The notes: generated from the sequence alone by a model not told the origin. A DNA stretch of 64,000 nt from Clostridia bacterium (GCA_050872785.1 JBNMHO010000003.1:12554-76553); one strand, 5' to 3'; shown: positions 24,936 to 52,096, counted from the stretch's first letter. Translations and numbers: made by a program.

Positions 24936-26535
24936 ATGAGATTTTGGGACAAAATGAGAGTTGGCATGTTGTGCGTAAATTACACGCTTGTCATGGCTCT
25001 TTTGTCCATTATCATCTTCGGAGCAACCCAACAAAGAACTTCCTCAAACGTGTCTGTAAGGTATTCTAGACCCTCATACACCGTGACTTTTGACCCAAAC
25101 GGCGGTGAGTTATCCACAATAGGGGGGGGGGGTATCCTCTAAGCAAGTAACCCTTGGTGACGCCTACGGCGACTTACCATTGCCCACAAAAACGGGTTAT
25201 TCATTTGTCGGTTGGAAATATGGCAATGAACTTGTCACTGCTACAACCAAAAACTTGACCCAAGGCGACCATACCTTGACCGCTTCATGGGGACATTCAG
25301 TTAAATTTGACTATAACAACGGAACCCTATCGAACTCACTTTCTCCAACTTATGCTGGGGAAGTCGGCACAACAACTTCACTTCCAAGCACACTTAACCC
25401 AACCTACTCGGGTCACACCTTTGCGGGCTGGCATTATGGAAAAAATTTAATTGAGCCAACGACATTCACTGGCTCCAATTTTATCGCTCTCGGTCGTGAT
25501 TATATGTACACCGACAAAATTACAATCGTAGTCAGAGCATATATGGACGATTGGACGAAATTTGGCACAAAAAAAACCACCCTTATCAGTTGCACTGAAA
25601 GAGGGGGGTGGTCGTTGAGTAATGAGATTGACTATAATGCTGTCAACTATATTTCATTTGCTATTATGAGTGAAAAGACGAATTTATACATACACACACA
25701 TAGTTCTATAACTTTTTCCCAAATGTCTAGTGGTTATCATACATTTATTGGGACTTTTGATGGCTCATATGCACGCTTATATATTGATGGGATTTTGGTT
25801 GGGACAAGTGCAAATGCTTCAACTACAATAAAATATGATTCATCAAATGGAATATTTGTTGGAGCTGAAGCAGAAGCGAATACAGTTTCTCCTTATGGTT
25901 ATTTTTTTACGGGAAAGGTTGATTATGTATCAATAGAAAATAGCACAATAGACGAAGCAAAAAATATAGGAGCTAACTTAATAACAGAAACCAATTTTGA
26001 TGGGTCAAATTATATTTCACTTGGAAAAGCATATAAGTATAAAAGTAAGATAGCTATAACAGTAATGGCTTCAATGAATGACTGGTCAAAATTCTCTTTA
26101 ATGTCAATGATTTCTTGCACCAATGGCGGTGGCTGGACTATTGAGGCAAAGCAAGACGTAATTTTACTTGCTGCATATGATAATAGTAGCAATGATTACA
26201 ATCGGGTCTCTTCTTCTATAAAGACATCTGAACTAAAAAGTGGATATCATAAATTTGTTGGTATATTCAACGGGGAAAATTTGAAATTATATGTAGATGA
26301 TGAGCTTGTGGCAAATGGGACAAAGTTTGGCTCAAAAAACATTAAATATTATTCCGACAATGGTATATTTGTTGGAGCTGAAGCAGGCAATAATACTTCA
26401 ACCCCAGAAGTAGGTTATTGTCAGTATTTTAAGGGAACAATAAGCCATGTTTTCATTGACAATACGTTTGTGGCAGAAAGAGGTATATATATTTATCAAG
26501 ACTTCGATGTTGTTGCAACGGCAATTTGGAACTGA
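24936..26535 (+). CDS. Frameshifted (phase-variable, OFF) surface protein: signal helix + InlB B-repeats + two LamG-like domains
   Basis: ORFs 24936-25142 and 25180-26535 fuse into 532 aa if G11 becomes G10, restoring TVTFDPNGG...GGGVSSKQVTLGDAYGDLPLPTKTGYSFVGW (B-repeat). Confidence 0.85.
25122..25132 (+). repeat. Poly-G (G11) tract in coding sequence, out of frame
   Basis: ata-GGGGGGGGGGG-tatcctct. Confidence 0.95.
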
Positions 26536-26569
26536 AAATATATTTTAGAACAAATATCCCACAAATCTC

Positions 26570-26598
26570 TTGACAAGTGGGACAAAGTGTGGTAAAGT
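26570..26598 (+). promoter_or_regulatory. sigmaA promoter of rplU operon
   Basis: TTGACA-17-TAAAGT with extended TG. Confidence 0.7.
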
Positions 26599-26599
26599 G

Positions 26600-26660
26600 G
26601 CGGTATCCGCATGGAAAAGGTTTAAAAGTGGGCTTTTGGCTTCACCTTAACAGCGAGTTT
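26600..26660 (+). ncRNA. Probable L21 ribosomal-protein leader
   Basis: ccgca...aagg...cctt...gcgagt structured 5' UTR directly upstream of rplU. Confidence 0.55.
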
Positions 26661-26682
26661 GGAGGATAAGGAGGAAAACAAA

Positions 26683-26994
26683 ATGTATGCTATCGTTCTT
26701 TCTGGCGGAAAGCAATATAAGGCAGAAGAAGGCAAGTTTATTGATGTTGAGAAACTTGACGGAAATGTTGGAGATAAAGTAAATCTCGATGTGCTTTGCG
26801 TGTCAGACGAAAAAGGTCTTGAAACAGGCAAACCTGTTTTGAGCAAGGTTAAGTGTGAAGCAGAAATCATTCTTCAAGGAAAACAAGACAAAATCATCGT
26901 TTTCAAATACAAAGCAAAGAAGAATGAAAGAAAGAAACAAGGTCACAGACAACCTTTCACCAGAGTTAAAATATTGTCGATAAAGAGAGTTTAA
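26683..26994 (+). CDS. rplU: 50S ribosomal protein L21
   Basis: MYAIVLSGGKQYK...KQGHRQPFT. Confidence 0.98.
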   Translation: MYAIVLSGGKQYKAEEGKFIDVEKLDGNVGDKVNLDVLCVSDEKGLETGKPVLSKVKCEAEIILQGKQDKIIVFKYKAKKNERKKQGHRQPFTRVKILSIKRV

Positions 26995-26999
26995 TTTTT

Positions 27000-27329
27000 A
27001 TGACAAAAATTACGGTCACTAAAAAAAATGATGAAATCGTGGAACTGGAATGTGACGGACACACCGATTATGGCGTGAACGGCGAAGACATTGTGTGCAG
27101 TGCATTGTCAAGCATTGTCCAAACAGCTGTTTTGGGGCTTATGATGGTCGCTGGCATAAATGTTTCACTGAAAAGGGACGAAAATAGGGGTTATCTTAAA
27201 CTCGTTCTCCCACAAAACATTTCGCAAGAAGCAAGACACGATGCAAATGTAATCTTAAACACAATGATGTGTGGAATAAGTGACCTGAGGGAAGGTTTTT
27301 CAGATTTTATAGAACTGGAGGTTAAGTAA
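27000..27329 (+). CDS. prp: Ribosomal-processing cysteine protease Prp (YsxB)
   Basis: GH...[10 protein letters not shown] motif, between rplU and rpmA. Confidence 0.93.
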
Positions 27330-27330
27330 G

Positions 27331-27624
27331 ATGTTTATTCAGTTGCAATTGTTCGCTCACAAAAAGGGCGGTGGTAGCACAAAGAACGGACGTGACAGTC
27401 AAGCCAAAAGACTTGGCGTTAAATGTGGTGACGGTCAACACGTTCTTGCTGGCAATATTATTGTTCGCCAACGTGGCACAAAATTTTACCCAGGCGACAA
27501 TGTAGGTCTTGGAAAGGACTACACATTGTTTGCACTTCGTGACGGAAAGGTGAAATTTATCACAAAACATGGCGACAAAAAATATGTCACAGTGGTTGAA
27601 GAAACTGCAAAGAAAGCAAAATAA
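27331..27624 (+). CDS. rpmA: 50S ribosomal protein L27 with Prp-cleaved N-terminal extension
   Basis: [23 protein letters not shown]. Confidence 0.98.
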
Positions 27625-27628
27625 ATTG

Positions 27629-27656
27629 AAAATTCCTCGAAATGGGGAATTTTTTT
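27629..27656 (+). terminator. Intrinsic terminator after rpmA
   Basis: aaaattcctc-gaaat-ggggaattttttt. Confidence 0.75.
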
Positions 27657-27657
27657 C

Positions 27658-27686
27658 TTGACAAAATTTATCATATATCCTACACT
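27658..27686 (+). promoter_or_regulatory. sigmaA promoter of poly-G surface gene B
   Basis: TTGACA-17-TACACT. Confidence 0.6.
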
Positions 27687-27721
27687 TTTTGAGAATAATA
27701 AAAATATGGAGGAATTTTAAA

Positions 27722-28610
27722 ATGACTAAAAGGGAACGATTTGTTTTGTGGCTCAATAGGTTTTATCACAAGCAAAATAAGATTACAATTTGTGTCTTAT
27801 ACACCCTCCTTATGGCTATCCTTGGTGTCATTATTTATGGGGCAACTCATCAAAGTTCCTCAAGCAATGTTTCAGTAAAATATACAGTCCCATACTACAC
27901 AATTACCTTCGACCCAAACGGCGGAACCCTCGAAAATGCAGGGGGGGGGGGTATTCTCAAAGCAAGTAAAACTTGGTGACACTTACGGCGATTTGCCACT
28001 GCCAAGCAGACCGGGTTATAGCTTCAACGGTTGGTATGAAGAAGCCCTTGTAACATCAGAATCAGTCCTTTCCACCCCATGCGACAAAACCCTAATCGCC
28101 GAATGGAATGATGGTATACCAGCAGATATGAGAAATTGGGAATTTATAACACCGCCTTATGAAATAGACTTTGCCAATTCGTTTACAAATTGGAATGTCA
28201 GCAATGGGGAAAATAAGTTCGATTTTTGTGGAGTAGGTGGGAGTGAAGTTAAATATACTGCACTTAATCTTGAAAAAAATAAAACATATTCAGTAGTTTT
28301 TGATTATGTTTTGCCAAATTTTACTTATACTGATGCAAACGGGAATTTCCGAGATAAAATGTATTCATATATTGTCAGCATTGATCCTGAAGCAAATTTA
28401 TTATATAATATGACGGATAGGATAGAAACAGTTGTTTCGATTTACACTTTAAATTCAAATACAGACGGGAAAGCCGTCCTATCTTTTACTGCAAGGGAAA
28501 CGGCAAAATATTATCTTGTGGTGAATTTTGGTTATTTGAATGACAATATAACTTATCACTTTGAATTTAATAATTTCACTCTATACACACACCAATGCAC
28601 ATTTGGCTGA
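27722..28610 (+). CDS. Frameshifted (phase-variable, OFF) surface protein: signal helix + InlB B-repeat + CBM-like beta-sandwich
   Basis: ORFs 27722-27979 and 27936-28610 fuse into 295 aa if G11 becomes G10 (TITFDPNGG...GGGVFSKQVKLGDTYGDLPLPSRPGYSFNGWY); paralogous N-terminus to 24936. Confidence 0.85.
27941..27951 (+). repeat. Poly-G (G11) tract in coding sequence, out of frame
   Basis: gca-GGGGGGGGGGG-tattctca. Confidence 0.95.
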
Positions 28611-28699
28611 GTGGTGGGTAGTCTAAATGGTGGGGAAGAAAAATATAAATAATATAATAGGTTTTGGCTTGTTATATTATTTTTTTTGCTGGGGGGATA

Positions 28700-28963
28700 A
28701 TGGTTTCGTTTTTGGAGGAGATTGCAAAGGTTTCGGGGGTTGATCCAAGTGTTGTCGTTGGAAGTAGCAGAGTGTTATATCTTGGTGGCAAGGTTGTTAT
28801 GATAGAAGGCAAGACTAAGTTGGTTGAGATGTCAGACGAACTTGTAAAGGTTAAACTTAAGCGGGGCATGGCGGTTGTTAGTGGCAAAAACTTGAAACTT
28901 AAAAACCTTAATCTTGAAAGTGTTATGATAGTTGGGGACATTGCAGAATTTCAGATTTGTTAA
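28700..28963 (+). CDS. yqfC: YabP/YqfC-family sporulation protein
   Basis: VMIEG...VSGKNLKLKNL...IVGDI pattern, upstream of yqfD. Confidence 0.75.
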   Translation: MVSFLEEIAKVSGVDPSVVVGSSRVLYLGGKVVMIEGKTKLVEMSDELVKVKLKRGMAVVSGKNLKLKNLNLESVMIVGDIAEFQIC

Positions 28964-28996
28964 AGTTGATATGTATAGTTATTAGATTTATGCGAA

Positions 28997-29250
28997 GGCT
29001 CCCCATTGTAAGGGGGAGTGGGTGGGGTCCCCGAAAGTAGCAGCATAGCGAAACTTTTGGGGGAAAAGGAAAGCATGTCCGTAAATTGAGTGGTTGTGTG
29101 AGCAACCTGAATAGAGGACAATGCTTGACGACCCGAGGGGGTAGTCCAGTTTGAGTTATTACTCTATCGTAATATGCTAGTAGAGTAGTTATCCTTGTTG
29201 GACTACCCTTTCGTCAACTTCGTTGACACCTTCCCTTACAAGGGCAGGCA
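28997..29250. repeat. GC-rich multi-hairpin REP/MITE-like element
   Basis: Terminal inverted core TTGTAAGGG (29006-14)/CCCTTACAA (29233-41) plus several internal stems, in an AT-rich intergenic gap. Confidence 0.6.
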
Positions 29251-29327
29251 CACACATTAAATAAATATGCGGTTAATTTTTAGCCTTCAAAAAAAATAAC
29301 ATATTAGTTTATAAAAGTGGGGGATAT

Positions 29328-30245
29328 ATGACGACTTATGAAGTTGTGGGGTTAAATTTTCCAAAGTTTTTAAGCGAGATTGAAAGGCGAAATATATCTT
29401 TAAACAGCCTTGTTAAACTTTCGCATGACAGGTTTTGCGTGGAAGTCGCTTTGGCACAGAAAAAGAAGTTTTTGAACCTTTGCTCGCTTCTTAATATGGA
29501 AGTAACAGAAAAGAAAATTCCCGTTTATGAGCGTGTTTTGCGTGGGATAAAATGCCATGTGCCACTGTCTATTTTTGTAGCAGTTTGCGTGGCTGTTCTT
29601 TTGTTTTCGCAAATGTTTGTGTTCCGAATTGAAGTTTTTGGCGAAACAAGTGTAAGCGAAGATGAGATTGTTTCTGTCTTAAAACAAAACGGCTTTGACA
29701 CGTGGAAAATGCGGGGAAGTTATGACACGCAAGAAGTGGAGCGAGTGCTTACTTCAAACATTCCAAAGATAAGTTTTGCTTCATGCGTTGTGCGTGGCGG
29801 GACACTGGTTGTAAACGTCTATGAAAAAATTGATGCGGAGAAGTCTTTAAGTGCGGGCAAGCCTATTGTTGCACCTTGCGACTTGATAATTGAAGAAATT
29901 TCTTGCACCAGCGGAACAGTGGTCAAACACCAAGGGCAAACGGCAAAGACGGGCGAGAGCATTGTTGAGAATTTTATCATGCTAGGACAAACGAAAATTG
30001 ACATTCCCGCGCATGCAACATTTACTGCAAAAGTGGAGCAGAGTATAAGTCAATTTTTGACACAAAAGACACAAGATGATATGGACATAAAAAAAGTGGT
30101 TGAAGAAAACAAAAGAATGTTGTATAATATGTTATCAGAAGCAAAACTTCTGGACAATATTGAAGAAGAAACAGAACTTTTGGAAACGGAAAACGGGTGC
30201 TTGGTGATAAGCCGTTTTAGAACTAAAATTGAAATTTCTTCATAA
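29328..30245 (+). CDS. yqfD: Sporulation protein YqfD
   Basis: TM then POTRA-like IEVFG..., IVAPCD...G; context yqfC-yqfD-ybeY-era. Confidence 0.8.
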   Translation: MTTYEVVGLNFPKFLSEIERRNISLNSLVKLSHDRFCVEVALAQKKKFLNLCSLLNMEVTEKKIPVYERVLRGIKCHVPLSIFVAVCVAVLLFSQMFVFRIEVFGETSVSEDEIVSVLKQNGFDTWKMRGSYDTQEVERVLTSNIPKISFASCVVRGGTLVVNVYEKIDAEKSLSAGKPIVAPCDLIIEEISCTSGTVVKHQGQTAKTGESIVENFIMLGQTKIDIPAHATFTAKVEQSISQFLTQKTQDDMDIKKVVEENKRMLYNMLSEAKLLDNIEEETELLETENGCLVISRFRTKIEISS

Positions 30246-30258
30246 CAAAGGAAACATT

Positions 30259-30759
30259 ATGAAAGTTGAAATAAACGATTACGCATTGTCAAAAAATTTT
30301 ACAAAACTCATTGGAAAGTTGCTTAAAACTGCAAACAAATATTCAAAATTCAATCAACGAAAAGTGCAAGTGGCAATTAGTTTTGTGGACAAAGACGAAA
30401 TTCAAAAATTGAACAAGGAAACCCGTGGCATAGACAAGCCAACGGACGTTTTGTCATTTCCAACCTTAAACCTTGTCTCACTTCAAAAAATTAACATGAA
30501 AGATCCAGAAATTAGGTGCGACATTGACCCAGAAACCAAACACCTTATGCTTGGCGACATAGTTATTTGCGAAGATGTTGCAAGGAAAAATGCCGAGGAA
30601 TATGGACACAGTTTTGAAAGGGAAATTTGCTATCTTGTTGTGCATGGATTCTTGCACCTTTTGGGTTATGACCACATGGAAGAAGACGACAAAATTGTTA
30701 TGCGTGCGCTAGAGGAAGCAGTGCTTAAAAAATATAACATAACGAGAGATGAAAAGTGA
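30259..30759 (+). CDS. ybeY: rRNA maturation RNase YbeY
   Basis: PTDVLSFP, HGFLHLLGYDH. Confidence 0.96.
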   Translation: MKVEINDYALSKNFTKLIGKLLKTANKYSKFNQRKVQVAISFVDKDEIQKLNKETRGIDKPTDVLSFPTLNLVSLQKINMKDPEIRCDIDPETKHLMLGDIVICEDVARKNAEEYGHSFEREICYLVVHGFLHLLGYDHMEEDDKIVMRALEEAVLKKYNITRDEK

Positions 30760-31658
30760 AAATTAAGTGTGGATTTGTAGCCGTTGTTGGCAAGCCCAAT
30801 GCGGGCAAAAGCAGCCTTGTAAATGCAATTATTAAGGAAAAGGTTTCAATCGTTTCGCCAAAACCACAAACAACGAGAAATAACATTTTGGGGATATATA
30901 ACAGTGACCACAGCCAAATTGTTTTTGTGGACACACCTGGCATAAACAAAACTTCAACGGGCCTTGACAAATTTATGCAAAAGAGCATAAAAGGGGCAGT
31001 GAGTGACGTTAATGCGGTTATTATTGTTTGCGACATAACAAAAGGCGTGGATAGGGTGGAAACTGACCTTGTAGAAAAATATAACAAGGAAAATATCCCA
31101 GTCGTGCTTGTTTTGTCCAAAATTGACCTTGTGAGCGATGAAGTGGTGTTTAAAACATTGCAACAATTATCTCCACTTGCGACACAGTGCGAGATTGTTC
31201 CGCTTTCAAGCATAAAGGACAGAAACGTTGAAACAGTGATTGACGTGGTGGAGAAATTTCTTCCAGAAGTTGACGAAAGAAACAAATATTTTGACGATGA
31301 CGAATACACAGACAAACCCCTAAACTTTTTGGTGGCGGAGATTGTTAGGGAAAAAGCGCTATACTATCTCGATAGGGAAATTCCACATGGCATAGCCGTT
31401 GTAACTCAAAGATTTGAGGAAGACGAAAACTTGATAGATATTGACGTTGACATTGTTTGCGACAAGAATTCACATAAAGCAATTATCCTCGGCAAACAAG
31501 GAACTATGCTCAAAAAAATCGGGCATGACGCTCGTGTTACAATTCAAAAAATTGTCCAAAAAAAGGTTATGCTAAATATTTTTGTTAAAGTTAAACCAAA
31601 TTGGAAAAATAATTTGGAGTTTTTGGATAGTTTGGGTTATAATATAAACGAGTTGTAG
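30756..31658 (+). CDS. era: GTPase Era
   Basis: GKPNAGKSS, PQTTR, DTPG, KH domain. Confidence 0.97.
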   Translation: MKIKCGFVAVVGKPNAGKSSLVNAIIKEKVSIVSPKPQTTRNNILGIYNSDHSQIVFVDTPGINKTSTGLDKFMQKSIKGAVSDVNAVIIVCDITKGVDRVETDLVEKYNKENIPVVLVLSKIDLVSDEVVFKTLQQLSPLATQCEIVPLSSIKDRNVETVIDVVEKFLPEVDERNKYFDDDEYTDKPLNFLVAEIVREKALYYLDREIPHGIAVVTQRFEEDENLIDIDVDIVCDKNSHKAIILGKQGTMLKKIGHDARVTIQKIVQKKVMLNIFVKVKPNWKNNLEFLDSLGYNINEL

Positions 31659-31723
31659 GAATAAATTTTGTTTTTTGAAACATTCTAGTGCTGATGATGC
31701 AACTTGCACGCAAGGGGGACACA

Positions 31724-31981
31724 ATGAACATTGAAAAAGCGTTTGCAAAAGTAAAACTGAATAACTCTAAAAGCAAAGCCTGTGTTGAAACATTAAATTT
31801 CTTAATGGGCAAATACGGCTGGGGTATAACTGTGCTTGCATATCTTACGGGCGAAGACCCAACAACTCATGAGCATTATTGCACAGACGAAGTTTTTGAC
31901 GCCTACGTTGAAGCACTGGAAAATCAAAAATTTGAAACAAATAACAACTTGGAGCAAGAAGAACCTACACTTGAAAGATAA
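31724..31981 (+). CDS. Hypothetical (orphan) protein
   Basis: 85-aa ORF with AGGGGG RBS between era and recO. Confidence 0.6.
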   Translation: MNIEKAFAKVKLNNSKSKACVETLNFLMGKYGWGITVLAYLTGEDPTTHEHYCTDEVFDAYVEALENQKFETNNNLEQEEPTLER

Positions 31982-32000
31982 TTAAAAAAAGAGATTAACA

Positions 32001-32720
32001 ATGGATAAAGCAGTTTCGGGGCTTGTTTTAAAAGCCATTGATTACAAAGAGAACGATAAACTACTCACAATTTTAACTTTGGATATGGGCAAAATTTTAG
32101 TGACCGCTCGTGGTGTCAAAAAACCTACAAGCAAACTAAAATCCTATAGCCAAAGTTTTTGTTTTGGTGAATTTGAATTGCAACAGGGCAAGGCGGGTTG
32201 GGTGCTTGTTGGCGTAAACCCAGTTGACACATTTTTTGAACTTCTATCAGACTTTGAAAAATATAAGGAAGCATGCACTGTCATTGAAATTTGTGACAAA
32301 ATATGTGTTGAAAACCAGTCCTATCCAAAACTTCTTTTGGAAGCCTTGAAAACCATAAAACAAATAAACTACTCGCAAATTTCCCCAAAGTTGCTCCTTA
32401 GCAAGTTTATTATGAATGTTCTAAATTATGAAGGCTTTGGAATGAGTGCAACCCATTGTGCAAACTGCAGAAGTCCATTTATGAAAGAAGTGTATTTTGA
32501 CACCACAACGGGCGAACTTCTTTGCCATGCATGCAGAAATGAAAATTGTGAGCAACTTGACGGCGGCGTGTTTTCCGCACTTAAAATTTTATCCACCACC
32601 GAAGAAAGTAAACTCTCCACCGTCCGCCTGCCAAATGCAGTTGTCGAACGCACATTCACCTTCCTAAACCGAAACCTCTGTAACAAGTTCGAAATCCACC
32701 TCAGTTCGGCTAAATTGTAA
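32001..32720 (+). CDS. recO: DNA repair protein RecO
   Basis: GLVLKAIDYKENDKLLTILT...ARGVKK; CxxC...CxxC. Confidence 0.93.
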   Translation: MDKAVSGLVLKAIDYKENDKLLTILTLDMGKILVTARGVKKPTSKLKSYSQSFCFGEFELQQGKAGWVLVGVNPVDTFFELLSDFEKYKEACTVIEICDKICVENQSYPKLLLEALKTIKQINYSQISPKLLLSKFIMNVLNYEGFGMSATHCANCRSPFMKEVYFDTTTGELLCHACRNENCEQLDGGVFSALKILSTTEESKLSTVRLPNAVVERTFTFLNRNLCNKFEIHLSSAKL

Positions 32721-32738
32721 GAAATTGGGAATAATTTG

Positions 32739-32767
32739 AAAAAATAGGGCTTTAAACCCTATTTTTT
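32739..32767 (+). terminator. Intrinsic terminator after recO
   Basis: aaaaaataggg-ctttaaa-ccctatttttt. Confidence 0.8.
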
Positions 32768-32779
32768 ATGTCATTTTTG

Positions 32780-32808
32780 TTGACAAATTGGGGACAAATA
32801 TATAAAAT
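32780..32808 (+). promoter_or_regulatory. sigmaA promoter of ppdK
   Basis: TTGACA-17-TAAAAT. Confidence 0.65.
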
Positions 32809-32839
32809 TTTCTTTGTGATTTTTAAAGGAGAAAAATAA

Positions 32840-43196: not shown

Positions 43197-43249
43197 AATC
43201 ATTAACTTTTGGTTTGAATATACAAAAAATAGTGCTAAAATAAAGCGAG

Positions 43250-44881
43250 GTGAAAATGAATTTTCTTGCAGTTGATAACATTCATTTGTATATAACGATT
43301 GTCCTGTCGCTCCTAAACGGAGTGCTTATGTGCTTTGCTTCATACAAATATTTTCAAATTATCCAACTTTCTGGCTATAAACTCAAAGGCTACTTCAGTT
43401 GGCTTAGGGAAACAAAGTGGAGTTACGCTTTAAGAATGGTGCTTTTAAGTTTGCTTAGTGGCTTTTGCGTGCTTGTAACAAATGCACTTTTCAATGTCTA
43501 TCACAAGCAAGCGTTATACTCATATATCGGGCTGATATTTTATTTCTATTTTGCAATCGTATTCATAAAAGCCCTTTACAACGCTCCAAAGAAAATTCCA
43601 CTTAAAAACACCACCCGCATGACAAGACTTAATGTTGCAATGTTCATTTTCGTAAGTTTGTTTTCGTTTGCAGTCGTTTGGGCGTCATTTCAACACCTAA
43701 ATTTTGTAAAGTTCGGTGCCTTGTGTTTTGTGCCAGCGTTTGTTGTGTTTATTGTTCCTATCGTGCATATTATTATGCTTCCACTTGAAAAACTTATTGT
43801 TGCAAGATATCTTCACAGTGCAAAAAGAAAACTTGCCAAACGCCAAGACTTAATTAAAATTGGTGTCACTGGAAGTTATGCAAAAACAAGTGTAAAATAC
43901 ATCTTAAACACAATTTTATCTCAAAAATACAAAGTCTGCATGAGCCCTCAAAGTTTTAACACCCAAACGGGACTTAGCAAAGTGGTGAATAACTATCTTA
44001 CAGACCTAGACCAAGTTCTTATTGCCGAAATGGGAGCAAGGAGCAAGGGAGATATCAAAAAACTTTGCAAACTTATCTCGCCAAAATATGGGATAATAAC
44101 GGGAATTTCACCACAACACCTTTTAACTTTTAAGTCATTGGATAACATAAAGAAAACAAAATTTGAACTGGTGGAAAGTCTGCCAAGTGACGGAACTTGT
44201 GTGTTTAATGGCTTTGACAGCGAAGTCTGCGACATGTATTCATGGACAAATTTAGAGAAAAAATATCTTGTTGGAAAAGACAAAGACCTTGCTGCAAAAG
44301 ACATTACATTCGACCAAGATGGCACAAAATTTACCCTTGTTATGGGTAAAAAAGAGTATAAAGTTTCAACAAAACTTTTGGGCGAACACAATGTCCAAAA
44401 CATATTGCTCTGTGTCAAAATGGCAAAATGCCTCGACCTTGACGACAAACAAATTATTGCTGGAATTGAGTCCTTGCAACCAGTGCCACACCGACTTGAA
44501 ATTATAAAAACTCCAACAAACATTATCCTTGACGACTCATTCAATGCAAATGTCCGTGGCAGCAAAATAGCCCTTGACGTGTTGAGCAAACTTCCGGGCA
44601 GAAAAGTTGTCATAACCCCAGGACTTGTGGAACTGGGAGAAAAAGAATATGAAGAAAACTTCGCCTTTGGTGCAGAAATCGCAAAAATATCTGACTTTGT
44701 AATTATCGTAAACAAAGTGAACTTTGAAGCAATTAAAGCAGGGCTTGACAGCGAGAACTTTAAGGAAGAAAATATCTTCCAAGCCGAAACCCTAGACCAA
44801 GCCAAAATACTTATGAAAGATTTTCTCGCCCCCGGCGACACCATTCTCTTTGAAAACGACCTCCCAGACAACTATATCTAA
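43250..44881 (+). CDS. murF: UDP-MurNAc-tripeptide:D-Ala-D-Ala ligase with N-terminal TM domain
   Basis: GVTGSYAKT, EMGA, DDSFNAN, ENDLPD. Confidence 0.88.
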   Translation: MKMNFLAVDNIHLYITIVLSLLNGVLMCFASYKYFQIIQLSGYKLKGYFSWLRETKWSYALRMVLLSLLSGFCVLVTNALFNVYHKQALYSYIGLIFYFYFAIVFIKALYNAPKKIPLKNTTRMTRLNVAMFIFVSLFSFAVVWASFQHLNFVKFGALCFVPAFVVFIVPIVHIIMLPLEKLIVARYLHSAKRKLAKRQDLIKIGVTGSYAKTSVKYILNTILSQKYKVCMSPQSFNTQTGLSKVVNNYLTDLDQVLIAEMGARSKGDIKKLCKLISPKYGIITGISPQHLLTFKSLDNIKKTKFELVESLPSDGTCVFNGFDSEVCDMYSWTNLEKKYLVGKDKDLAAKDITFDQDGTKFTLVMGKKEYKVSTKLLGEHNVQNILLCVKMAKCLDLDDKQIIAGIESLQPVPHRLEIIKTPTNIILDDSFNANVRGSKIALDVLSKLPGRKVVITPGLVELGEKEYEENFAFGAEIAKISDFVIIVNKVNFEAIKAGLDSENFKEENIFQAETLDQAKILMKDFLAPGDTILFENDLPDNYI

Positions 44882-44884
44882 CCC

Positions 44885-44911
44885 AAAAGACTAGACCTTC
44901 TAGTCTTTTTT
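44885..44911 (+). terminator. Intrinsic terminator after murF
   Basis: aaaagactaga-cct-tctagtctttttt. Confidence 0.75.
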
Positions 44912-44963
44912 CTAAACATTTTGGCGGGCTGTTTCATATATAAAGCCAAAGGACGGGAAAGAT

Positions 44964-46112
44964 ATGAAACAGAATGTTGTGGTGTTGTTTGGCGGGGTGA
45001 GTGTTGAACATGATATTTCAATTATAACTGGTTCGCAAGTGCTTGCAAATTTGGATAGGGAAAGGGACAATATTATTCCAATATACATTTCAAAAGACGG
45101 CAGATTTTTGACGGACGAAAACTTTTGGGATGTTACATATTTTGCAAAAGAACAAAACTTCTCTAAGGCGAAGCAAGTGTTTTTTGCTGCGGGCGGGAAT
45201 TTGTTTTGCATAAAGGGCAAAAAGGCAAAACTTTTATGTAAGGTAGATTTTGCATATCTTGCACTTCATGGCGGAATGGGGGAAAGCGGCTCTGTTCAGG
45301 GACTTCTTGATTGTGCTGGGGTGAAATATTCCAGTTGCGACAGTTTTGCAAGCGGTGTTTGCATGAACAAATTTTGCACCAAAGTTCTAGCAAAAGAGCA
45401 AAAAATACCTGTAGCAAAGGGCATTTTGTTATCTTCAGATGACAAAAATATTTCTGTAAGCGACCTATCTGAGCGGGTTAAGGGGCTTAATTATCCAATA
45501 GTTGTAAAGCCAAACAATCTTGGCAGCAGCATCGGCATAACCTTTTGCAAAGACGAGGAAATGTTGCATGGGGCGGTGACTTTCGCTTTCTTATTTGACA
45601 CAGAAGTTCTGTGCGAGGAAGCAGTCTGCAACTTGAGAGAACTCAACATTGCTTGTCTGGGCTCGGGTGAGATGTGCGAATGTTCTCTTGTTGAAGAAGT
45701 GACACCGAACAAAGATTTCTTAACTTTTGAAAACAAATATCTTGGTGGCGGCAAGGGCATGGAATCGCAAAAGCGAATTGTGCCAGCAAGCGTTTCAAAA
45801 AAGATATTGAATAGGATAGAAATTTATGCAAAGAGAATGTTTAAGGTGGTCAAAATGAAGGGCTGCGTGCGAATGGACTTTTTGATGGATGAAAAGACAG
45901 AAACAGTCTATCTTAATGAGGTCAATCCAATCCCTGGCTCGCTGGCGAATTATCTTTGGGGGAATAAGGGCTATTCTTTCCAAAATTTGCTCGAAAAAAT
46001 GAAGGACTACGCCGACATGGACTATGAGGAAAAGGAGAAAAAGATAACTCAATTTTCTTCTTCCGTTTTGAAAAACTTTTCTGGGTGCGATGGGGACAAA
46101 TTCGGGAAATAA
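44964..46112 (+). CDS. ddl: D-alanine--D-alanine ligase
   Basis: FGGVSVEHDIS, HGGMGE.G, GSSIG, NEVNPIPG. Confidence 0.93.
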   Translation: MKQNVVVLFGGVSVEHDISIITGSQVLANLDRERDNIIPIYISKDGRFLTDENFWDVTYFAKEQNFSKAKQVFFAAGGNLFCIKGKKAKLLCKVDFAYLALHGGMGESGSVQGLLDCAGVKYSSCDSFASGVCMNKFCTKVLAKEQKIPVAKGILLSSDDKNISVSDLSERVKGLNYPIVVKPNNLGSSIGITFCKDEEMLHGAVTFAFLFDTEVLCEEAVCNLRELNIACLGSGEMCECSLVEEVTPNKDFLTFENKYLGGGKGMESQKRIVPASVSKKILNRIEIYAKRMFKVVKMKGCVRMDFLMDEKTETVYLNEVNPIPGSLANYLWGNKGYSFQNLLEKMKDYADMDYEEKEKKITQFSSSVLKNFSGCDGDKFGK

Positions 46113-46203
46113 CACTTAATACAAAAATTGGGAAACATGATTTTCGTTGATTTTTGTTGTAAATTTGTGCAATTTATTGTATCATTTTACAAAAGGAAAA
46201 AAA

Positions 46204-47049
46204 ATGAGAGTTTTGCAAGAGAAAAACAGAATTATTGTTGAAAGCGAAGACGATTTTGACATAAAGCAAATTTTGGAATGTGGGCAAGTCTTTAGTTTTT
46301 ACAAAAGGGACAACGGATACATAGTCACAAGCATGGATAAGGTGGCACGCATAACTCTTTGTGGAGATAAGACAATTATTGATACAAGTGACATTGACTA
46401 TTTTTACAACTATTTTGACCTCGGCACAGATTATGGCAAAATTAGGTCTAAAATTAAGGAATATTATCCCAATTTTGACAAATATTTTGCTGGCGGAAGG
46501 GATATTCGCATTTTGCACCAAAACCCATTTCAAACAATTATTAGTTTTATCGTTTCGGCAAATAACAACATTGCAAGAATTAAGAAAATATTAAACAACA
46601 TATCTTTTAAGTTTGGCAAAAAACTTGAAGATGAAATTTATTCATTCCCAACATTGCAAGCACTAAAAAGTGCTAGAGAAGAAGACTTTGCGGCTGCTGG
46701 GGCGGGTTATAGAAGTGAATATCTTGTTAAAACTATAGAAATGTTGCAAGAAGATAGATATAGCATAAAAAATATGGAAAAATTGCCAACAAATGATCTT
46801 AGAGAACGGCTTATGGAACTTAAAGGGGTTGGCGGAAAAGTGGCAGATTGCATACTATTTTTTGGCTTTGGGCGAAGTGACAGTTTTCCAGTGGATACGT
46901 GGATAAGAAGGGCTTATCTTCTTTTTTGCAGCAAGCCTAGGACGGATAAGGAAATTTCAAAATATTTCTTGCAGATTTTTAGAGAAGTTTCGGGCTATGC
47001 ACAACAATATATCTTCAACTACATGATAAATTACAAACAAGCGGCATAA
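46204..47049 (+). CDS. 8-oxoguanine DNA glycosylase (Ogg)
   Basis: ECGQVF, SANNNI, GVGGKVADC, FPVDTW, GYAQQY. Confidence 0.92.
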   Translation: MRVLQEKNRIIVESEDDFDIKQILECGQVFSFYKRDNGYIVTSMDKVARITLCGDKTIIDTSDIDYFYNYFDLGTDYGKIRSKIKEYYPNFDKYFAGGRDIRILHQNPFQTIISFIVSANNNIARIKKILNNISFKFGKKLEDEIYSFPTLQALKSAREEDFAAAGAGYRSEYLVKTIEMLQEDRYSIKNMEKLPTNDLRERLMELKGVGGKVADCILFFGFGRSDSFPVDTWIRRAYLLFCSKPRTDKEISKYFLQIFREVSGYAQQYIFNYMINYKQAA

Positions 47050-47225
47050 CAAAGTGCGAAGAATGTCGAAAAAAAGTGGAGAAAAATCAATCAATTTATT
47101 TTTTTATTGACCTTTTGTGTGATAAACTAAAGTGTCGAAAGTCAAAATAGGGAAATTTATCTTAAATGACTTTTGGCAAAAACTTATGAAAAAAATTTCT
47201 TGAAACACACAAAGGAGGTTTCAAC

Positions 47226-47729
47226 TTGAAAACAAATATTGTCCTTGTTGGACTTTATGACAAGATGACAAAATCTGTTGCAAAACGGCTGGCTGACGAT
47301 TTTGATATGTATCTTGCCGATTTGGTGGAAATTGTAAAATATAACTTAATGAATGAAGAAGAAATTGAGAAAATTTGTGGCGTGCAATATCTAAACAAGC
47401 AAAAAGCAAAAGTTGTGGGTGATGTTGCAAGTTATGAAAACTCTGTTATCCATTTGCCATATTCCATTTTTTCTGAAGGGGAAAACTCGGACAAGTTTAA
47501 AAAAAATGGCACAACAATTTTTTTAAAACTATCTCTTTCTGCTTTCAAAAAACTTCTTGACAAGGACAAAACAATGTCAAGTGACGAAAAGAAACTTGCA
47601 TTGATTGTTTTTGAAGATAGGACAGTTTTGGGGAAGAAAATGTGCGATTTGACGGTGGAAGTTGACTCGCCAGACTATTTGACGGCTTACAAAAGGACGA
47701 GAAAAGCCTTGGACAACTTTCTTTTGTAA
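47226..47729 (+). CDS. Shikimate-kinase-like protein with degenerate P-loop
   Basis: MKTNIVLVG...AKRLA...D, GTTIFL, R...CDLTV layout but no GxxxxGK[ST]. Confidence 0.55.
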   Translation: MKTNIVLVGLYDKMTKSVAKRLADDFDMYLADLVEIVKYNLMNEEEIEKICGVQYLNKQKAKVVGDVASYENSVIHLPYSIFSEGENSDKFKKNGTTIFLKLSLSAFKKLLDKDKTMSSDEKKLALIVFEDRTVLGKKMCDLTVEVDSPDYLTAYKRTRKALDNFLL

Positions 47730-47812
47730 AAATTTGATTTTTGCAAAAACTAATAGTAAAATTATGTGTAAATATGCGAAAAATGTAGAAAAATGTAAAA
47801 TGTGAGGAAAAA

Positions 47813-49750
47813 ATGAACGAAACATTGGTTAATTATTTAAGAGTTACATCTTGCCTTGAAATTGAAAAAGCGGGTTCTGGACACCCAGGGGTTTGCCTTG
47901 ACGGGGCTCCCATTGCCTTTTCCATTTTTAAAAATGCCAAAAGAGATTGCAAAAACCCTAGGTGGGGAAATAGGGATAGAATTGTCTTTTCCGCAGGGCA
48001 TGCAAGCGCACTTGTGTATGCGTGTCTAAATCTTTTTGGCTATGACATGACTATTTCAGACTTGCAAAGTTTTAGGCAACTTGGCTCAAAGTGTAAGGGT
48101 CACCCAGAGGTGGACATTCCAGGTGTTGACGCCACAACGGGACCGCTTGGACAAGGTGTTGGCATGGCAGTTGGCATGGCGGTTGCAGAAGAATATTTAA
48201 GGGGCAAATTCGCCCATGGGAATTTAAGCCCTATTGACCACTACACCTATTGCTTTGTTGGTGACGGCGACCTTATGGAAGGTGTGGCACAAGAGGCAAT
48301 AAGTTTCGCTGGCACACAAAAGTTATCTAGACTTATCCTTTTGTATGACAAAAACGACATCACAATCGAGGGTTCAACCAACTTTTCAAATAGGGAAAAT
48401 GTAAAACAAAAGTTTATTTCTATGGGTTGGAATGTTTTTGAAGTGGAAAACGGCAACAGTGTGGAAGAAATAGACAGTGCTATTTTGCAAGCCAAAAAAA
48501 GTGACAGACCAAACATCATAATTGTCAAAACAAGAATTGGCTTTGGCAGTGAACTTGAAGGGACAGCAGCAGTTCATGGAAAACCATTAAACAAAGAACA
48601 AATTGAGCATTTACGCCAAAATCTTGGATATTTTGTGCCAGATTGGACTTTAAGTGACGCACAAAAAGAAGAAATGGAAAGAATCCTCTTGCAAAAGCAA
48701 CAAGAAGTGAAATTGTATAACGAAAACATGGACGAATACAAAAGAAAATTCCCAAAAGATTATGCCGAGTATCAAAATATGATAAGTTCGCCTGTGGTGG
48801 AACTTTCAACCTTAATAGAAAAAACGGGGGATAAATTTGACGGCAGAAAGGTGCTGGGGAATGTGCTTAACAAGGTTTATGGCATTGTCCCTATGCTAAG
48901 TTTATGTGCCGACCTCACTCCTTCAACTAAAACAAATGTCGTGGACGGTGGCAACTTTTGTGTGGATAACAGAACAGGCAGAAACGTTATGCTAGGGATA
49001 AGGGAACACGCCATGGGCGCTGTGTGCAATGGAATTGTTTTGAGTGAGCTACCCGCACTTTGCTCAACTTTTATGTCTTTTGCAAACTACATGACTCCAG
49101 CAATAAGACTTAGTACAATGATGTCTGTTCCAACACTATATGTCTTTACGCACGACTCAATATTGGTGGGCGAGGACGGACCAACTCACGAGCCTATTGA
49201 ACAAATTGCAACACTCAGAGCAATGCCAAATATAAATGTTTTCCGCCCATGCGGTGAGGAAGAACTTTTGGCAAGTTTGCAGTGTCATTTTGAAGGAAGA
49301 AAGCCTAGCGCAATCTTAATTTCCCGCAGTGCAGTTTGTGGGGTGAAAGACAACTTTTCAAAGGCACTTTACGGCGGTTACATTTTAAGTGACGCAAAAG
49401 ACTATGTCGCAACTTTAGTTTCTACGGGGACAGAAGTCAGTTTGTGCGAAAAGGTTAAAGAAAACCTTGCAAAAAAGGGAATAAACGTCAGAGTTGTCAG
49501 CATGCCTTGCGTGGAAGTTTTTGACAAACAAAGAAAGAGTTATAAAGATAAAGTTTTGGACGGGACAAAGCCTATTATCTGCGTGGAAGCAAGCAGTGAT
49601 AACGTGTGGCACAAGTTCGCTCAAAAGGAAGAATATGTCTTTACGTTAAAAACTTTTGGCGAAAGCGGAAAACTTGAAGATGTTTGCAAACATTTTGGGT
49701 TAGAAGAAAACTACTTAACAAAATATGTCGAAAAAGTAATTTTTAGTTGA
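47813..49750 (+). CDS. tkt: Transketolase
   Basis: SGHPG, TTGPLGQG, GDGDLMEG, GIREHAMG, GEDGPTH. Confidence 0.97.
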   Translation: MNETLVNYLRVTSCLEIEKAGSGHPGVCLDGAPIAFSIFKNAKRDCKNPRWGNRDRIVFSAGHASALVYACLNLFGYDMTISDLQSFRQLGSKCKGHPEVDIPGVDATTGPLGQGVGMAVGMAVAEEYLRGKFAHGNLSPIDHYTYCFVGDGDLMEGVAQEAISFAGTQKLSRLILLYDKNDITIEGSTNFSNRENVKQKFISMGWNVFEVENGNSVEEIDSAILQAKKSDRPNIIIVKTRIGFGSELEGTAAVHGKPLNKEQIEHLRQNLGYFVPDWTLSDAQKEEMERILLQKQQEVKLYNENMDEYKRKFPKDYAEYQNMISSPVVELSTLIEKTGDKFDGRKVLGNVLNKVYGIVPMLSLCADLTPSTKTNVVDGGNFCVDNRTGRNVMLGIREHAMGAVCNGIVLSELPALCSTFMSFANYMTPAIRLSTMMSVPTLYVFTHDSILVGEDGPTHEPIEQIATLRAMPNINVFRPCGEEELLASLQCHFEGRKPSAILISRSAVCGVKDNFSKALYGGYILSDAKDYVATLVSTGTEVSLCEKVKENLAKKGINVRVVSMPCVEVFDKQRKSYKDKVLDGTKPIICVEASSDNVWHKFAQKEEYVFTLKTFGESGKLEDVCKHFGLEENYLTKYVEKVIFS

Positions 49751-49830
49751 TTAAATTTTATTTTAATGCTAAAATGCCTATGTAAGTCGAATAATGTAAA
49801 ATTTAAACTTTAGTTTTTGAAGGAGGGAAA

Positions 49831-50451
49831 ATGGCAGTCACAAATTCAAAAAAGAAATTGATAATTGCAGTATTTATGCTTTGCACGGCAATCGTTGGCT
49901 TTGTGGCAATGACTTTTTCTATCCTTGCTGCAACAACTCAACAAGTGCAGTCAGTTTTTTCTGTAACATACGCTGGCGACAACGTCTATGCAACTGTTTC
50001 TGGAACATATAGCATAAACGGCGGCACAGCAAGCAACCTAACTGCCACAGACGGCTCCACAAGCCTTGTTTTTACACCAGGAATGGGGCAAACTTCAAAA
50101 ACTCTTTCTTGCCCAGAAGTTGACCTGTCACCAGAAAATAGCTGCTTGTTCTTTGTGTATAAGTTTGAAAACAAAAACCCAAGCGGTGGATATGCAATGC
50201 AAGTTGCTTTTTCAGACGGCTCCACTTCCACAAACATGACAATTACATACTACGCCTCAACGACTTCCGTGCCAACATTGGCTCAAACAGAGGCTTCCAC
50301 CACGGGCAAAAACATAAGTCTTACAGTAAATGCACAATCAACTGGCTACATCGCCGTGTGCGTTAAGATAACGTCAGTTTACCTTGACGCAAGTTACCTC
50401 AGCACCGCTGCAAATGGTGTTTGTGCAACAATTTCAAGTTTAGCGTCATAA
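49831..50451 (+). CDS. Secreted S/T-rich beta protein; stand-alone paralogue of the N-terminal domain of 50546
   Basis: Signal helix + ATTQQVQSVFSVTY; shares NV..S.TY, QT.KTL, F.NKN, NMT..YY, ANG with 50546. Confidence 0.8.
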   Translation: MAVTNSKKKLIIAVFMLCTAIVGFVAMTFSILAATTQQVQSVFSVTYAGDNVYATVSGTYSINGGTASNLTATDGSTSLVFTPGMGQTSKTLSCPEVDLSPENSCLFFVYKFENKNPSGGYAMQVAFSDGSTSTNMTITYYASTTSVPTLAQTEASTTGKNISLTVNAQSTGYIAVCVKITSVYLDASYLSTAANGVCATISSLAS

Positions 50452-50466
50452 ATAACATTCAATCGC

Positions 50467-50493
50467 TTGACAATTCGACATAAATCTTATAAT
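50467..50493 (+). promoter_or_regulatory. Possible sigmaA promoter of gene 50546
   Basis: TTGACA followed by TATAAT (15-nt spacer, suboptimal). Confidence 0.4.
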
Positions 50494-50545
50494 CTATTGT
50501 ATATTTCAATGTGTAAATCAAAAGACTAAGGATAGGAGAGAAAGG

Positions 50546-52096
50546 TTGAAAAAGAAGATTTTTTCGTTGATACTCACAGCAGTTCTTATTGTGACAGCCT
50601 CTGTCGCAATGGTCTTTTATGCTTTGGCTGCAACCCAAATCAACCTAAAATCTACCATTGAAGTTGGTTATACTGCAGCACCAAATGTCGTCTGCGAAGC
50701 CAGTGCAACCTATCAACTGGAAAAAGATGCCTCGGCAACTGCCTTTACTTCTGGTGGACAAAGTTTCGCTTACATAGACTCTCAAACAACAAAAACACTC
50801 ACCGCCAGCAACTCTGCCTTGGTGCTTAATGACATGACCAGTTCATATGTCATATTCACATTCACATTTAAGAACAAAAACTTAATGTCAACTTTCAATC
50901 TTAACATCAAACTTACAGACAATTCACTCTGCTCAAATATGACAAGAAAATATTATTTTGGCTCACTTTCTTCATCAAACCTTGCCAATCTCGCCAGCCA
51001 AATAAAATCTAACGGCGTTGACTACTCCGCACTTTCAAGCCAAACCTTAACTCTGGGCTATCAAGAAACTGGCAAAGTCTATATGCTTGTGGAAATCATT
51101 TCTGGCCTTAAGGGAAGTTACACCGCAAACACCGCAAATGGCTTCAAATTTACGCTTACAACCACCACGGGGGGGGGGGTAGCCTTTCTTAGCAGTGACT
51201 GGAAAGACCGCCTTAACATAGGTATAGAAAATATAGAAGACAACAATGTAACAACCCTTATTTTTACAAAAGACTCAGCCCAAACAAGCGGACTTTCAAA
51301 TAGCAAGTCAGTTGGCACAAACAGTGCAACAAGCACTTCTGCCTACACAACAGCCCCAGGAATTTCTGATGTTACAGCCTACTGGAATAGCAACAAGTCA
51401 AAAATTGTTATTTATTCACCAAACACCATTTATGCCCCACAGAGCTGCTATCAATTGTTTGATCTTTGTGAAAAAATGACAACCATAGATTTATCCAACT
51501 TTAATACTAGCATTGTGACCGATATGTTTTGTATGTTTTCTGGCTGTAAATCTCTAATAAACCTAGATTTAAGCAATTTTAACACCAGCAATGTGACGAA
51601 TATGTGTGAAATGTTCTTGCGTTGTTCTGGACTAACCAGTCTAAACTTAAGCAATATTGATACAAGCAAAGTGACGGATATGGAGGGTATGTTCTATAAT
51701 TGTTCTGGGTTAACCAGTCTAAACCTAAGCAATATTGATACAAGCAAAGTGACGGATATGGGGATTATGTTCAGCGGTTGTTCTGGGCTAACTAGTCTAA
51801 ACCTTGGCAACTTTAACATGCAGGCCTGCACTAATTTTTATTACATGTTTGATGATTGCTCCGCCCTTAATTCAATAACTCTGCCATACAACTTGCAAAG
51901 CGGAAAGACAATAGACCTGCCAAGTCTAGATAGTGGATATTATTACACTGCCGATACTTCTGACATTTCCGTAGGTGCTTATTCTTTTACAAAAATTGGA
52001 ACGGAAACTAATCTCGCAAATAATGTTATAGCTTGTTCAACAGCAAGCAAAAAAGTAGAGGTGTGGAAAAACTCTGGTACTCCTGATATAACCTAA
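50546..52096 (+). CDS. Surface protein: ~210-aa N-domain + in-frame poly-G hinge + BspA/DUF285-like LRR repeats (phase ON)
   Basis: Signal helix; TTTGGGV encoded by G11; 26-aa repeats LxxLNLSNxxTSxVTxMxxMFxxC. Confidence 0.85.
   Translation: MKKKIFSLILTAVLIVTASVAMVFYALAATQINLKSTIEVGYTAAPNVVCEASATYQLEKDASATAFTSGGQSFAYIDSQTTKTLTASNSALVLNDMTSSYVIFTFTFKNKNLMSTFNLNIKLTDNSLCSNMTRKYYFGSLSSSNLANLASQIKSNGVDYSALSSQTLTLGYQETGKVYMLVEIISGLKGSYTANTANGFKFTLTTTTGGGVAFLSSDWKDRLNIGIENIEDNNVTTLIFTKDSAQTSGLSNSKSVGTNSATSTSAYTTAPGISDVTAYWNSNKSKIVIYSPNTIYAPQSCYQLFDLCEKMTTIDLSNFNTSIVTDMFCMFSGCKSLINLDLSNFNTSNVTNMCEMFLRCSGLTSLNLSNIDTSKVTDMEGMFYNCSGLTSLNLSNIDTSKVTDMGIMFSGCSGLTSLNLGNFNMQACTNFYYMFDDCSALNSITLPYNLQSGKTIDLPSLDSGYYYTADTSDISVGAYSFTKIGTETNLANNVIACSTASKKVEVWKNSGTPDIT
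51169..51179 (+). repeat. Poly-G (G11) tract in coding sequence, in frame
   Basis: accaccac-GGGGGGGGGGG-tagcc. Confidence 0.95.
51467..51880 (+). repeat. 78-bp tandem coding repeats (about 5 LRR units)
   Basis: tgttctgg units at 51623, 51701, 51779 exactly 78 bp apart with near-identical framework. Confidence 0.85.

Follow-up and report, generated by a model that had tools for sequence, protein, structure and literature searches.

Genes and features at the locus

The stretch of DNA analysed in this study (the window) comprises 64,000 nucleotides (nt) of a Clostridia bacterium (GCA_050872785.1, JBNMHO010000003.1:12554-76553), and four of its genes, designated by their start positions as 24936, 27722, 49831 and 50546, encode proteins in which a 14-residue motif follows directly on a hydrophobic N-terminal helix. 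Judged from sequence comparison, this motif is most likely the conserved N-terminal segment of the mature proteins in an exported surface family of about 30 members, many of which contain a long run of G in the coding region. The host assembly (own genome, G000) belongs to the Christensenellales (Clostridia), has 1,110,236 bases in 37 contigs and is estimated to be 98.5% complete; it represents an uncultured group within that order whose members have very small genomes and live in animal and human guts.

The four genes fall into class A (24936 and 27722) and class B (49831 and 50546). Their features are listed below, where aa denotes amino acids, ORF an open reading frame, ON a G run in frame and OFF a G run out of frame.

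24936..25142, plus strand: class A gene 1, 5' ORF of 68 aa, with a 29-aa leader containing the hydrophobic helix, the motif and the start of the first Listeria-Bacteroides repeat; OFF
25023-25064, plus strand: motif of gene 24936, ATQQRTSSNVSVRY
25122..25132, plus strand: 11-G homopolymer of gene 1, 99 nt from the motif start
25133..26535, plus strand: class A gene 1, downstream frame (+1), completing the first Flg_new repeat and adding a second one, together with two concanavalin/LamG-like domains
27722..27979, plus strand: class A gene 2, 5' ORF of 85 aa from ATG, with a 40-aa leader (MTKRERFVLWLNRFYHKQNK plus helix), the motif and the start of Flg_new; OFF
27842-27883, plus strand: motif of gene 27722, ATHQSSSSNVSVKY
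27936..28610, plus strand: class A gene 2, downstream frame (+1), with a Flg_new repeat (PF09479, E 4e-8) and a ~165-aa domain without a family
27941..27951, plus strand: 11-G homopolymer of gene 2, 99 nt from the motif start
49831..50451, plus strand: class B stand-alone protein of 206 aa, with a signal helix at residues 4-33, the motif and then a beta sandwich of ~160 aa
49930-49971 (residues 34-47), plus strand: motif of gene 49831, ATTQQVQSVFSVTY
50546..52096, plus strand: class B fused protein of 516 aa, with a signal helix, the motif and a beta sandwich joined by a TTTT-GGG linker to a DUF285/PARCEL leucine-rich repeat domain
50630-50671, plus strand: motif of gene 50546, ATQINLKSTIEVGY
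51169..51179, plus strand: 11-G homopolymer in 50546, in frame (ON), where the beta sandwich meets the PARCEL domain

A shared motif in two paralogous gene classes

The original prediction had placed the motif in register at four sites of the window, and this was borne out when the ORFs and the quoted peptides were checked against the sequence. In all four genes, the hydrophobic helix ends in G or A and abuts the motif. The strict pattern, [GAS]AT-x5-S-x-[VFIL]-x-V-x-Y, was scanned over the six-frame translation of the genome and gave 21 matches, all of them immediately behind an N-terminal hydrophobic helix, compared with none in the reversed genome and 0-1 in each of 10 triplet shuffles; therefore, the motif occurs far above chance. 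A looser pattern gave 32 matches, 23 of which follow an N-terminal helix and form one family, the other nine being scattered chance matches.

The residues around the junction of helix and motif are conserved as well. Every family member examined (the 23 pattern matches and 18 class B sequences) has a small residue (G, A or S) at -1 and an aliphatic or small residue at -3, and many have G or S at -4 to -6. Among the 18 class B sequences, which come from eight genomes and are only 20–28% identical to 49831, the final motif residue Y47 is invariant, A33 at -1 is nearly so, and the core S-x-I/V-x-I/V-x-Y lies at a constant distance from an A-x-A-like site. The A-T start of the motif is confined to the subclade that also has class A. 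The folds downstream of the motif do differ (PF09479 in the first pair, with Laminin_G_3 in one of the two; the class B domain in the second pair, with DUF285 in 50546). The four proteins belong to two paralogous classes of together about 30 genes, and the motif reflects a gene family, not convergence among unrelated proteins.

Class A has about 21 copies, including 24936 and 27722; its leader gave 22 matches in the own genome, two of them weak. The basic N-region has 20 residues (shorter in an MRFWDK variant) and leads into a helix of ~20 residues whose last residue is G; the motif comes next, then a Flg_new repeat with the G run inside it, and the C-terminus varies widely, LamG pairs included. 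The motif and the B-repeat of 24936 and 27722 were recognised correctly in the original prediction, which overlooked that neither gene is intact in the assembly: the 5' ORF ends a few codons past the 11-G run, the adhesin part continues in the +1 frame, and both genes are in the OFF state. The downstream frame of gene 24936 matches PF09479 (E 1e-11), PF13385 (Laminin_G_3, E 1.7e-12), PF02210 (E 4.8e-6) and TIGR02543. A model of the class A N-terminus (first 130 aa, from an alignment of only five sequences) was uninformative, with a mean predicted local distance difference test (pLDDT) score of 56 and values below 50 in the motif region. Directly upstream of 24936 and divergently oriented, on the minus strand, a 142-aa ORF (24345-24770) encodes a predicted multi-helix membrane protein without a Pfam family.

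The class B domain gave nine matches in the own genome, eight of them full length, including 49831 and 50546. In these proteins, the signal helix is of the MKKK type and has A as its last residue; the motif follows, and then a domain of ~170 aa for which no Pfam or NCBIfam family was found. The domain stands alone in 49831 and in three tandem genes on contig C19; it is fused to PARCEL/DUF285 in 50546 and at C4:61802, and to Flg_new and LamG at C3:80044. The PARCEL part of 50546 matches PF03382 (E 4.7e-36) and TIGR02167 (E 6e-47). At the family level, the class B domain was detected in 18 of 81 genomes (15 of 58 genera). A word-index homology search with 49831 returned only five close relatives, 64–93% identical, and a profile search of 1.84 billion representatives was dominated by giant PARCEL proteins, the profile (alignment A1, 483 positions) having included the DUF285 part.

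In two further genomes of the family, the class B domain heads 14 matches (G033) and 12 matches (G202), mostly in open frames of 490–810 aa, many of them at contig starts. The class B module is therefore a widespread N-terminal carrier for long surface proteins. Downstream of 50546, a gap of ~420 nt (52097-52518) precedes the ribosome recycling factor gene; it contains an ORF (52123-52503) without a Pfam match and no Rfam family.

Poly-G tracts and probable phase variation

The lengths of G/C runs in the own genome are bimodal, with 25 runs of 6 and 22 of 9–12 but a single run each of 7 and 8, whereas the lengths of A/T runs decay smoothly; therefore, there is no general homopolymer error. Genome-wide, 24 G/C runs reach at least 8, and 23 of these lie in or adjoin family genes, the remaining one (8 G) being unrelated. 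In class A genes, 19 of the 24 runs occur at two fixed positions, 77–78 or 98–99 nt from the motif start, with 5 tracts ON and 14 OFF. The others are the run in 50546 (ON) and three runs located 150–270 nt upstream of other class B genes. A long homopolymer of 9–12 G in the 5' coding region thus sets the reading frame of 19 class A genes and of 50546, as in a contingency locus, and in genes 24936 and 27722 a run of 10 or 13 G in place of 11 would fuse the two frames.

The same tract context was found in 5 of 28 genomes of the genus, all separate assemblies, in 16, 10, 8, 7 and 3 copies, with none in the reversed-pattern control. Tract lengths differ between related genomes. The tract of 50546 has 11 G in the own genome and in G011, and 10 G in the sister genome G008, where the orthologue (OFF) terminates right past the tract to leave a beta-domain-only product. 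The G008 orthologues of 24936 and 27722 have 12 G and 11 G, respectively (both OFF), and a tract of 13 G was found in G011.

Variation within a sample was sought in Logan contigs. One contig with one G fewer at 25122 was present in each of three runs, at depths of 4.68, 20.1 and 7.1, where neighbouring single-copy contigs had depths of ~7–12, 35–40 and 11 and the summed depths were 144, 565 and 132. Several points count against taking this contig as a switched variant of gene 24936: it makes up only 3–5% of the summed depth, it could be sequencing stutter, and the three runs belong to one study, possibly the source of the assembly itself. Because its flanks are common to paralogues, the evidence for variation within the population is only weak. 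The second tract (27941) was bridged with 11 G by a contig of 3922 nt in each of the three runs. Logan runs X4-X6 contain only small shares of the window, X4 only ribosomal-protein genes at ~93% identity.

From these patterns, the tracts are very probably phase-variable contingency loci at which slippage switches the adhesins ON and OFF reversibly, with a different subset expressed in each cell. Gene callers will report short hypothetical ORFs and pseudogenes at such loci, and so conceal the organism's largest surface-protein family.

The G runs of 9–12 upstream of class B genes lie at C3:79881-79892 (equal to L003 382-393), C4:62072-62080 and C24:828-838 in the own genome, and at L014 1336 in G008. 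Their surroundings are conserved and apparently non-coding, and the sequence context, ..caatata-Gn-tatctctcaagcaaa, is similar to that of the coding tract in class A. Read on the other strand, the site looks like a promoter, TTGAGA-16-TATATT, with the run as its 16-nt spacer. These upstream runs may act as a transcriptional switch or may be left over from the 5' end of a class A gene.

In G008, a scaffold gap of Ns follows directly after the G run at locus L059 1699, and several class A genes of the own genome lie on contigs of only 1.4–4.3 kb (among C27-C37). Since the assemblies break at these loci, the copy numbers of the family are lower bounds.

A SipW-like signal peptidase and its operon

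The SipW-like peptidase that a TasA-type reading calls for was found in the own genome at G000:C2:485-2617 (L025; 710 aa), with a counterpart at L039 5001-7133. It was first spotted beside class B loci of relatives through its S-x-S-M box. The G003 orthologue matches TIGR02228 (E 2.3e-9) and the Bacillus SipW model NF046067 (E 5.6e-7), and the G000 protein, 47% identical to it, was found with the orthologue as the query; a search of the own genome with the TIGR02228-type family gave nothing at E <= 0.01, and only a LepB-type enzyme was found. The protein begins with a cytoplasmic N-extension of ~50 aa and ends in a tail of ~430 aa; between these, two transmembrane helices flank a peptidase domain that contains an insertion. 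The tail is rich in K, E, A and P, and both tail and N-extension are unusual for a signal peptidase.

In an alignment with five SipW genes from other clostridia, each located beside TasA-like genes, S97-M98, H192 and a T-x-G-x-x-N box are invariant, so that the catalytic Ser (SxSM box) and His (HxV box) of an S26B peptidase are both present. Two features weigh against the assignment. Under the curated cut-offs, the G003 orthologue scores 37.3 bits against 51.85 (TIGR02228) and 29.3 against 190 (NF046067), and the Asp of the GDxN box, which is important in this type of peptidase, is replaced by Ser.

The genomic context ties the peptidase to class B. In L039, a contig of a metagenome-assembled genome from a near-identical relative, the peptidase matches the G000 protein at 100% identity over its first 280 residues. 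This one contig carries an operon of three 49831-like class B genes, a 187-aa accessory gene encoding a helix-plus-beta protein, and the peptidase gene, the accessory stop codon overlapping the peptidase start. In the own genome, the same operon genes are split between two contigs, at the end of C19 and the beginning of C2. Class B and peptidase genes are adjacent in at least 10 genomes of the genus and in the further genera G202, G244, G248 and G263; the four window genes themselves are not adjacent to the peptidase gene.

Both searches covered 18 genomes of the genus; class B domain and peptidase occur together in 11 of them, are both absent from 7 and are never discordant, these genomes being related and hence not independent samples. 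The long-form SipW-like peptidase is likewise encoded in each of the six genomes in which class A leader matches are clear. At the family level, SipW-type peptidases were found in 17 of 18 class B genomes and in 44 of 63 others, and this co-occurrence does not discriminate because such peptidases are generally common (61 of 81 genomes). In NCBIfam, none of the four window proteins matched a signal-peptide class at E <= 1, the presence of a SipW-cognate signal model in that library being unconfirmed.

Predicted fold of the class B domain

The AlphaFold2 (AF2) monomer model of 49831, built from an 11-row alignment, has a mean pLDDT of 84.6 and shows a helix at residues 4-33 followed by a beta sandwich. 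In a Foldseek search, the best PDB matches were self-complemented or strand-reversed forms of FimA (E 5.5e-6 to 2.9e-5, template modelling (TM) score 0.28–0.37), followed by mu-homology domains. On this model, the ~170-aa class B domain is predicted to be a pilin-like beta sandwich. TasA was not among the fold-library matches listed, which does not exclude a likeness to TasA. In the ESM Atlas, the nearest clusters (0.94) are unnamed, and the nearest named cluster (0.92) has Peptidase_M73 on 22% of its members, which we regard as a lead only. Oligomer modelling of three mature copies of 49831 (residues 33-206, A1), run with no controls, gave a score of 0.00 in both runs and is evidence neither way.

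A type IV pilin is not indicated: PF07790 (Pilin_N) reached E 0.025 and 15.9 bits against a cut-off of 25.2, in a single piece of the window, and the prepilin peptidase was not searched for. This match and those to DUF4179 (E 0.045), choice-of-anchor J (E 0.0044) and EF0750_LPXTG (E 0.026) were dismissed as noise.

Other features of the window

On the minus strand, an ORF of 1111 aa (7481-10813) has no Pfam family at E <= 1e-5. On the plus strand, adjacent ORFs of 120–121 aa (10871-11230 and 11278-11640) match the C-terminal and N-terminal halves of TauE/SafE, in that order, and represent either two half-size genes or one rearranged gene. No Rfam family reached its gathering score anywhere in the window (1-64000), including the region upstream of the L21-Prp-L27 genes (26659-27624).

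Proposed mechanism and alternative explanations

The absence of LPxTG and SLH anchors noted in the original prediction stands: neither family matched any of the six pieces of the window at E <= 0.1, and no sortase was found in the own genome at its estimated completeness, so that neither the sortase gene nor the LPXTG signal of sortase-assembled pili was detected. The host does encode cell-wall and sporulation proteins (Mur ligase, Ddl, MreB, YabP and YqfD). Because it is walled and no sortase was found, the adhesins need some hold beyond the wall. A walled cell without a detected sortase favours, without proving, a fibre or scaffold.

The explanation that we consider best overall, at slightly less than an even chance, is an exported, phase-variable family that is cleaved by the SipW-like peptidase and possibly assembled by strand complementation. 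The SipW-like enzyme would cleave after the terminal G or A of the helix, and the motif would become the free N-terminus; such cleavage just before the motif is probable. The alternating S-x-hydrophobic-x-V-x-Y strand at this N-terminus would then complement class B sandwiches, as in TasA/TapA. The class B sandwiches would form a scaffold, class A proteins, having the strand and no acceptor domain, would dock onto it or cap it, and proteins of the 50546 type would be decorated subunits. By analogy, this arrangement is a tentative possibility to which we give somewhat less than even weight, and the shaft, decorated-shaft and cap roles originally given to 49831, 50546 and 24936/27722, respectively, are putative in the same way.

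Slippage of the G run would toggle each adhesin in or out of frame, and in 50546 the switch would alternate between a bare beta-sandwich subunit and a subunit carrying the PARCEL domain. In its fullest form, the proposal is a donor-strand fibre unrelated to TasA, with its own SipW-like peptidase, ~20 adhesins that plug in through the 14-residue strand, and independent poly-G switches. This form is speculative and on the whole unlikely; if it were true, a sortase-less gut bacterium of 1.1 Mb would display combinatorial binding tips that are heritable yet reversible. On the same speculative view, genes in the OFF state would still export a strand-only peptide of ~40 residues, which could nucleate or cap fibres by analogy with the N-terminal fragment of TapA that is enough for TasA assembly (PMC10151520).

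Of the TasA-type donor-strand assembly initially proposed, the location of the motif at the predicted mature N-terminus of proteins with different folds, and the existence of a SipW-like peptidase, have held up, whereas homology to TasA was not found and the modelled strand pairs in cis. The results speaking against donation of the strand are that the motif strand (37-47) lies inside its own sandwich in the AF2 monomer, and the class B domain may be self-complete, with the motif simply its first strand; that PF12389 (Peptidase_M73) matched neither the six window pieces nor the whole genome at E <= 0.1; that an hhalign comparison of class B (A2) with 14 clostridial TasA-like proteins (A3) aligned only 38 signal-peptide columns (probability 77.5); and that a profile search of PDB sequences gave, at best, a LolA-family protein at E 0.049.

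The strand pairing in cis and the lack of detected TasA homology are what would be expected if the motif were only the recognition or first-strand region of SipW-like substrates, in which case monomers would be released or remain cell-associated, class B would serve as a stalk and no fibre would form. The class B domain at the head of long multidomain proteins in G033 and G202 also resembles such a generic stalk. This export-tag explanation leaves unaccounted for why the class A strand is kept in the same register before a different fold, why three small stand-alone class B proteins are encoded in the peptidase operon, and how the adhesins are retained on a walled cell without a sortase, and we regard it as a serious alternative that is nevertheless rather unlikely. 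If the helix instead stayed in the membrane as an uncleaved signal anchor, the motif would be a short membrane-proximal spacer strand. Class A has a long basic N-region of 20 residues and a helix that, at ~20 residues, is long enough to span the membrane, no other type of anchor was found, and there is a very weak match to the mycoplasma signal-anchor model TIGR02184 (E 0.84). An anchor would not need the small residue at -1, the aliphatic or small residue at -3 and the frequent G or S at -4 to -6, which are features of cleaved signals. A dedicated signal peptidase is encoded beside class B genes, and a signal sequence of comparable length, 43 residues, is reported for TapA (PMC10151520). An uncleaved anchor is therefore improbable.

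Homogenisation of paralogue 5' ends by recombination, with G runs arising as assembly or sequencing errors, would give the motif no special function. The class A 5' regions are indeed 66–93% identical across their first 58–130 residues, and recent paralogy or gene conversion could account for the conservation of the motif within that class; many copies also lie on tiny contigs, and one relative has a scaffold gap directly after the tract (L059). This explanation fails for the comparison between classes, since class A and class B have only the motif in common and yet keep it in register, with the core at a fixed distance from the cleavage site in members only 20–28% identical. It likewise conflicts with tracts at the same codon in five separately assembled genomes, at lengths of 9–13, and with the smooth decay of A/T runs. 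These results largely refute it, and we consider it very improbable.

Implications and comparison with known systems

What emerges most firmly as new is the link between a SipW-like operon and a large, phase-variable family of adhesins, neither of which has been described for this lineage in the papers searched. Literature searches on SipW and on homopolymer phase variation in these bacteria returned no account of surface biology in the lineage, and no report of phase-variable Listeria-Bacteroides repeat proteins was found. Approximately 3% of the genes of this genome belong to one export family under homopolymer switching; therefore, strong and fluctuating selection on adhesion, exerted by host, mucus, phage or partner cells, is indicated. 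If the shared strand docks as proposed, it would represent a second, independent invention of the TasA/TapA principle, and the first case of a phase-variable repertoire supplying the nucleator or cap.

The closest known systems are TasA-TapA-SipW of B. subtilis and camelysin/SipW of B. cereus and clostridia. PMC9674648 describes that, in TasA fibres, the first mature residues 28-38 (11 residues) extend as a donor strand into the next subunit, that monomeric TasA is self-complemented by another strand, and that SipW removes the signal peptides of both TasA and TapA. TapA has the donor strand of TasA despite a different fold, according to the same source and PMC10151520; the latter further describes that the TapA N-terminus, which follows a signal sequence of residues 1-43, is donated by strand complementation, that a construct secreting only TapA residues 44-57 still supports biofilm formation, that the tapA stop and sipW start overlap, and that the strand arrangement resembles that of Fim and Pap pilins. 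FimA, the rod subunit of the type 1 chaperone-usher pilus, gave the best PDB fold matches of the 49831 model.

As in these systems, a SipW-type peptidase is encoded here with one to several small beta-sandwich paralogues and an overlapping accessory gene, and a conserved strand behind the cleavage site, a predicted one here, is shared with a protein of different fold (TapA there, class A here). Unlike in the TasA system, the sandwich here has no detectable Peptidase_M73 homology; the strand reads A-T-x5-S-x-hydrophobic-x-V-x-Y, in contrast to AWFTD...FTAGTVxI in clostridial TasA-like proteins; the peptidase has a ~50-aa N-extension, an internal insertion and a ~430-aa K/E-rich tail; and, above all, ~21 adhesin genes carry the strand, most of them phase-variable.

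The variable parts of the window genes match InlB B-repeat (PF09479) and PARCEL/DUF285 proteins above the curated cut-offs. Known members of these families are usually anchored by LPXTG, GW, a lipoprotein signal or otherwise, whereas the leader plus the motif is the only constant part here.

For the tracts, the comparison system is the poly-G contingency loci of Campylobacter jejuni (compare PMC8437040 and PMC4889913). Both organisms have many G/C runs of 9–13 in the 5' coding parts of surface-related genes of a small AT-rich genome, with ON and OFF frames mixed and run lengths bimodal. In contrast to the C. jejuni loci, the tracts described here occur in a Clostridia host, nearly all of them (23 of 24) belong to a single gene family, in whose repeat domain they occupy the same codon, and the switch lies between a constant module (export and strand) and a variable one (binding).

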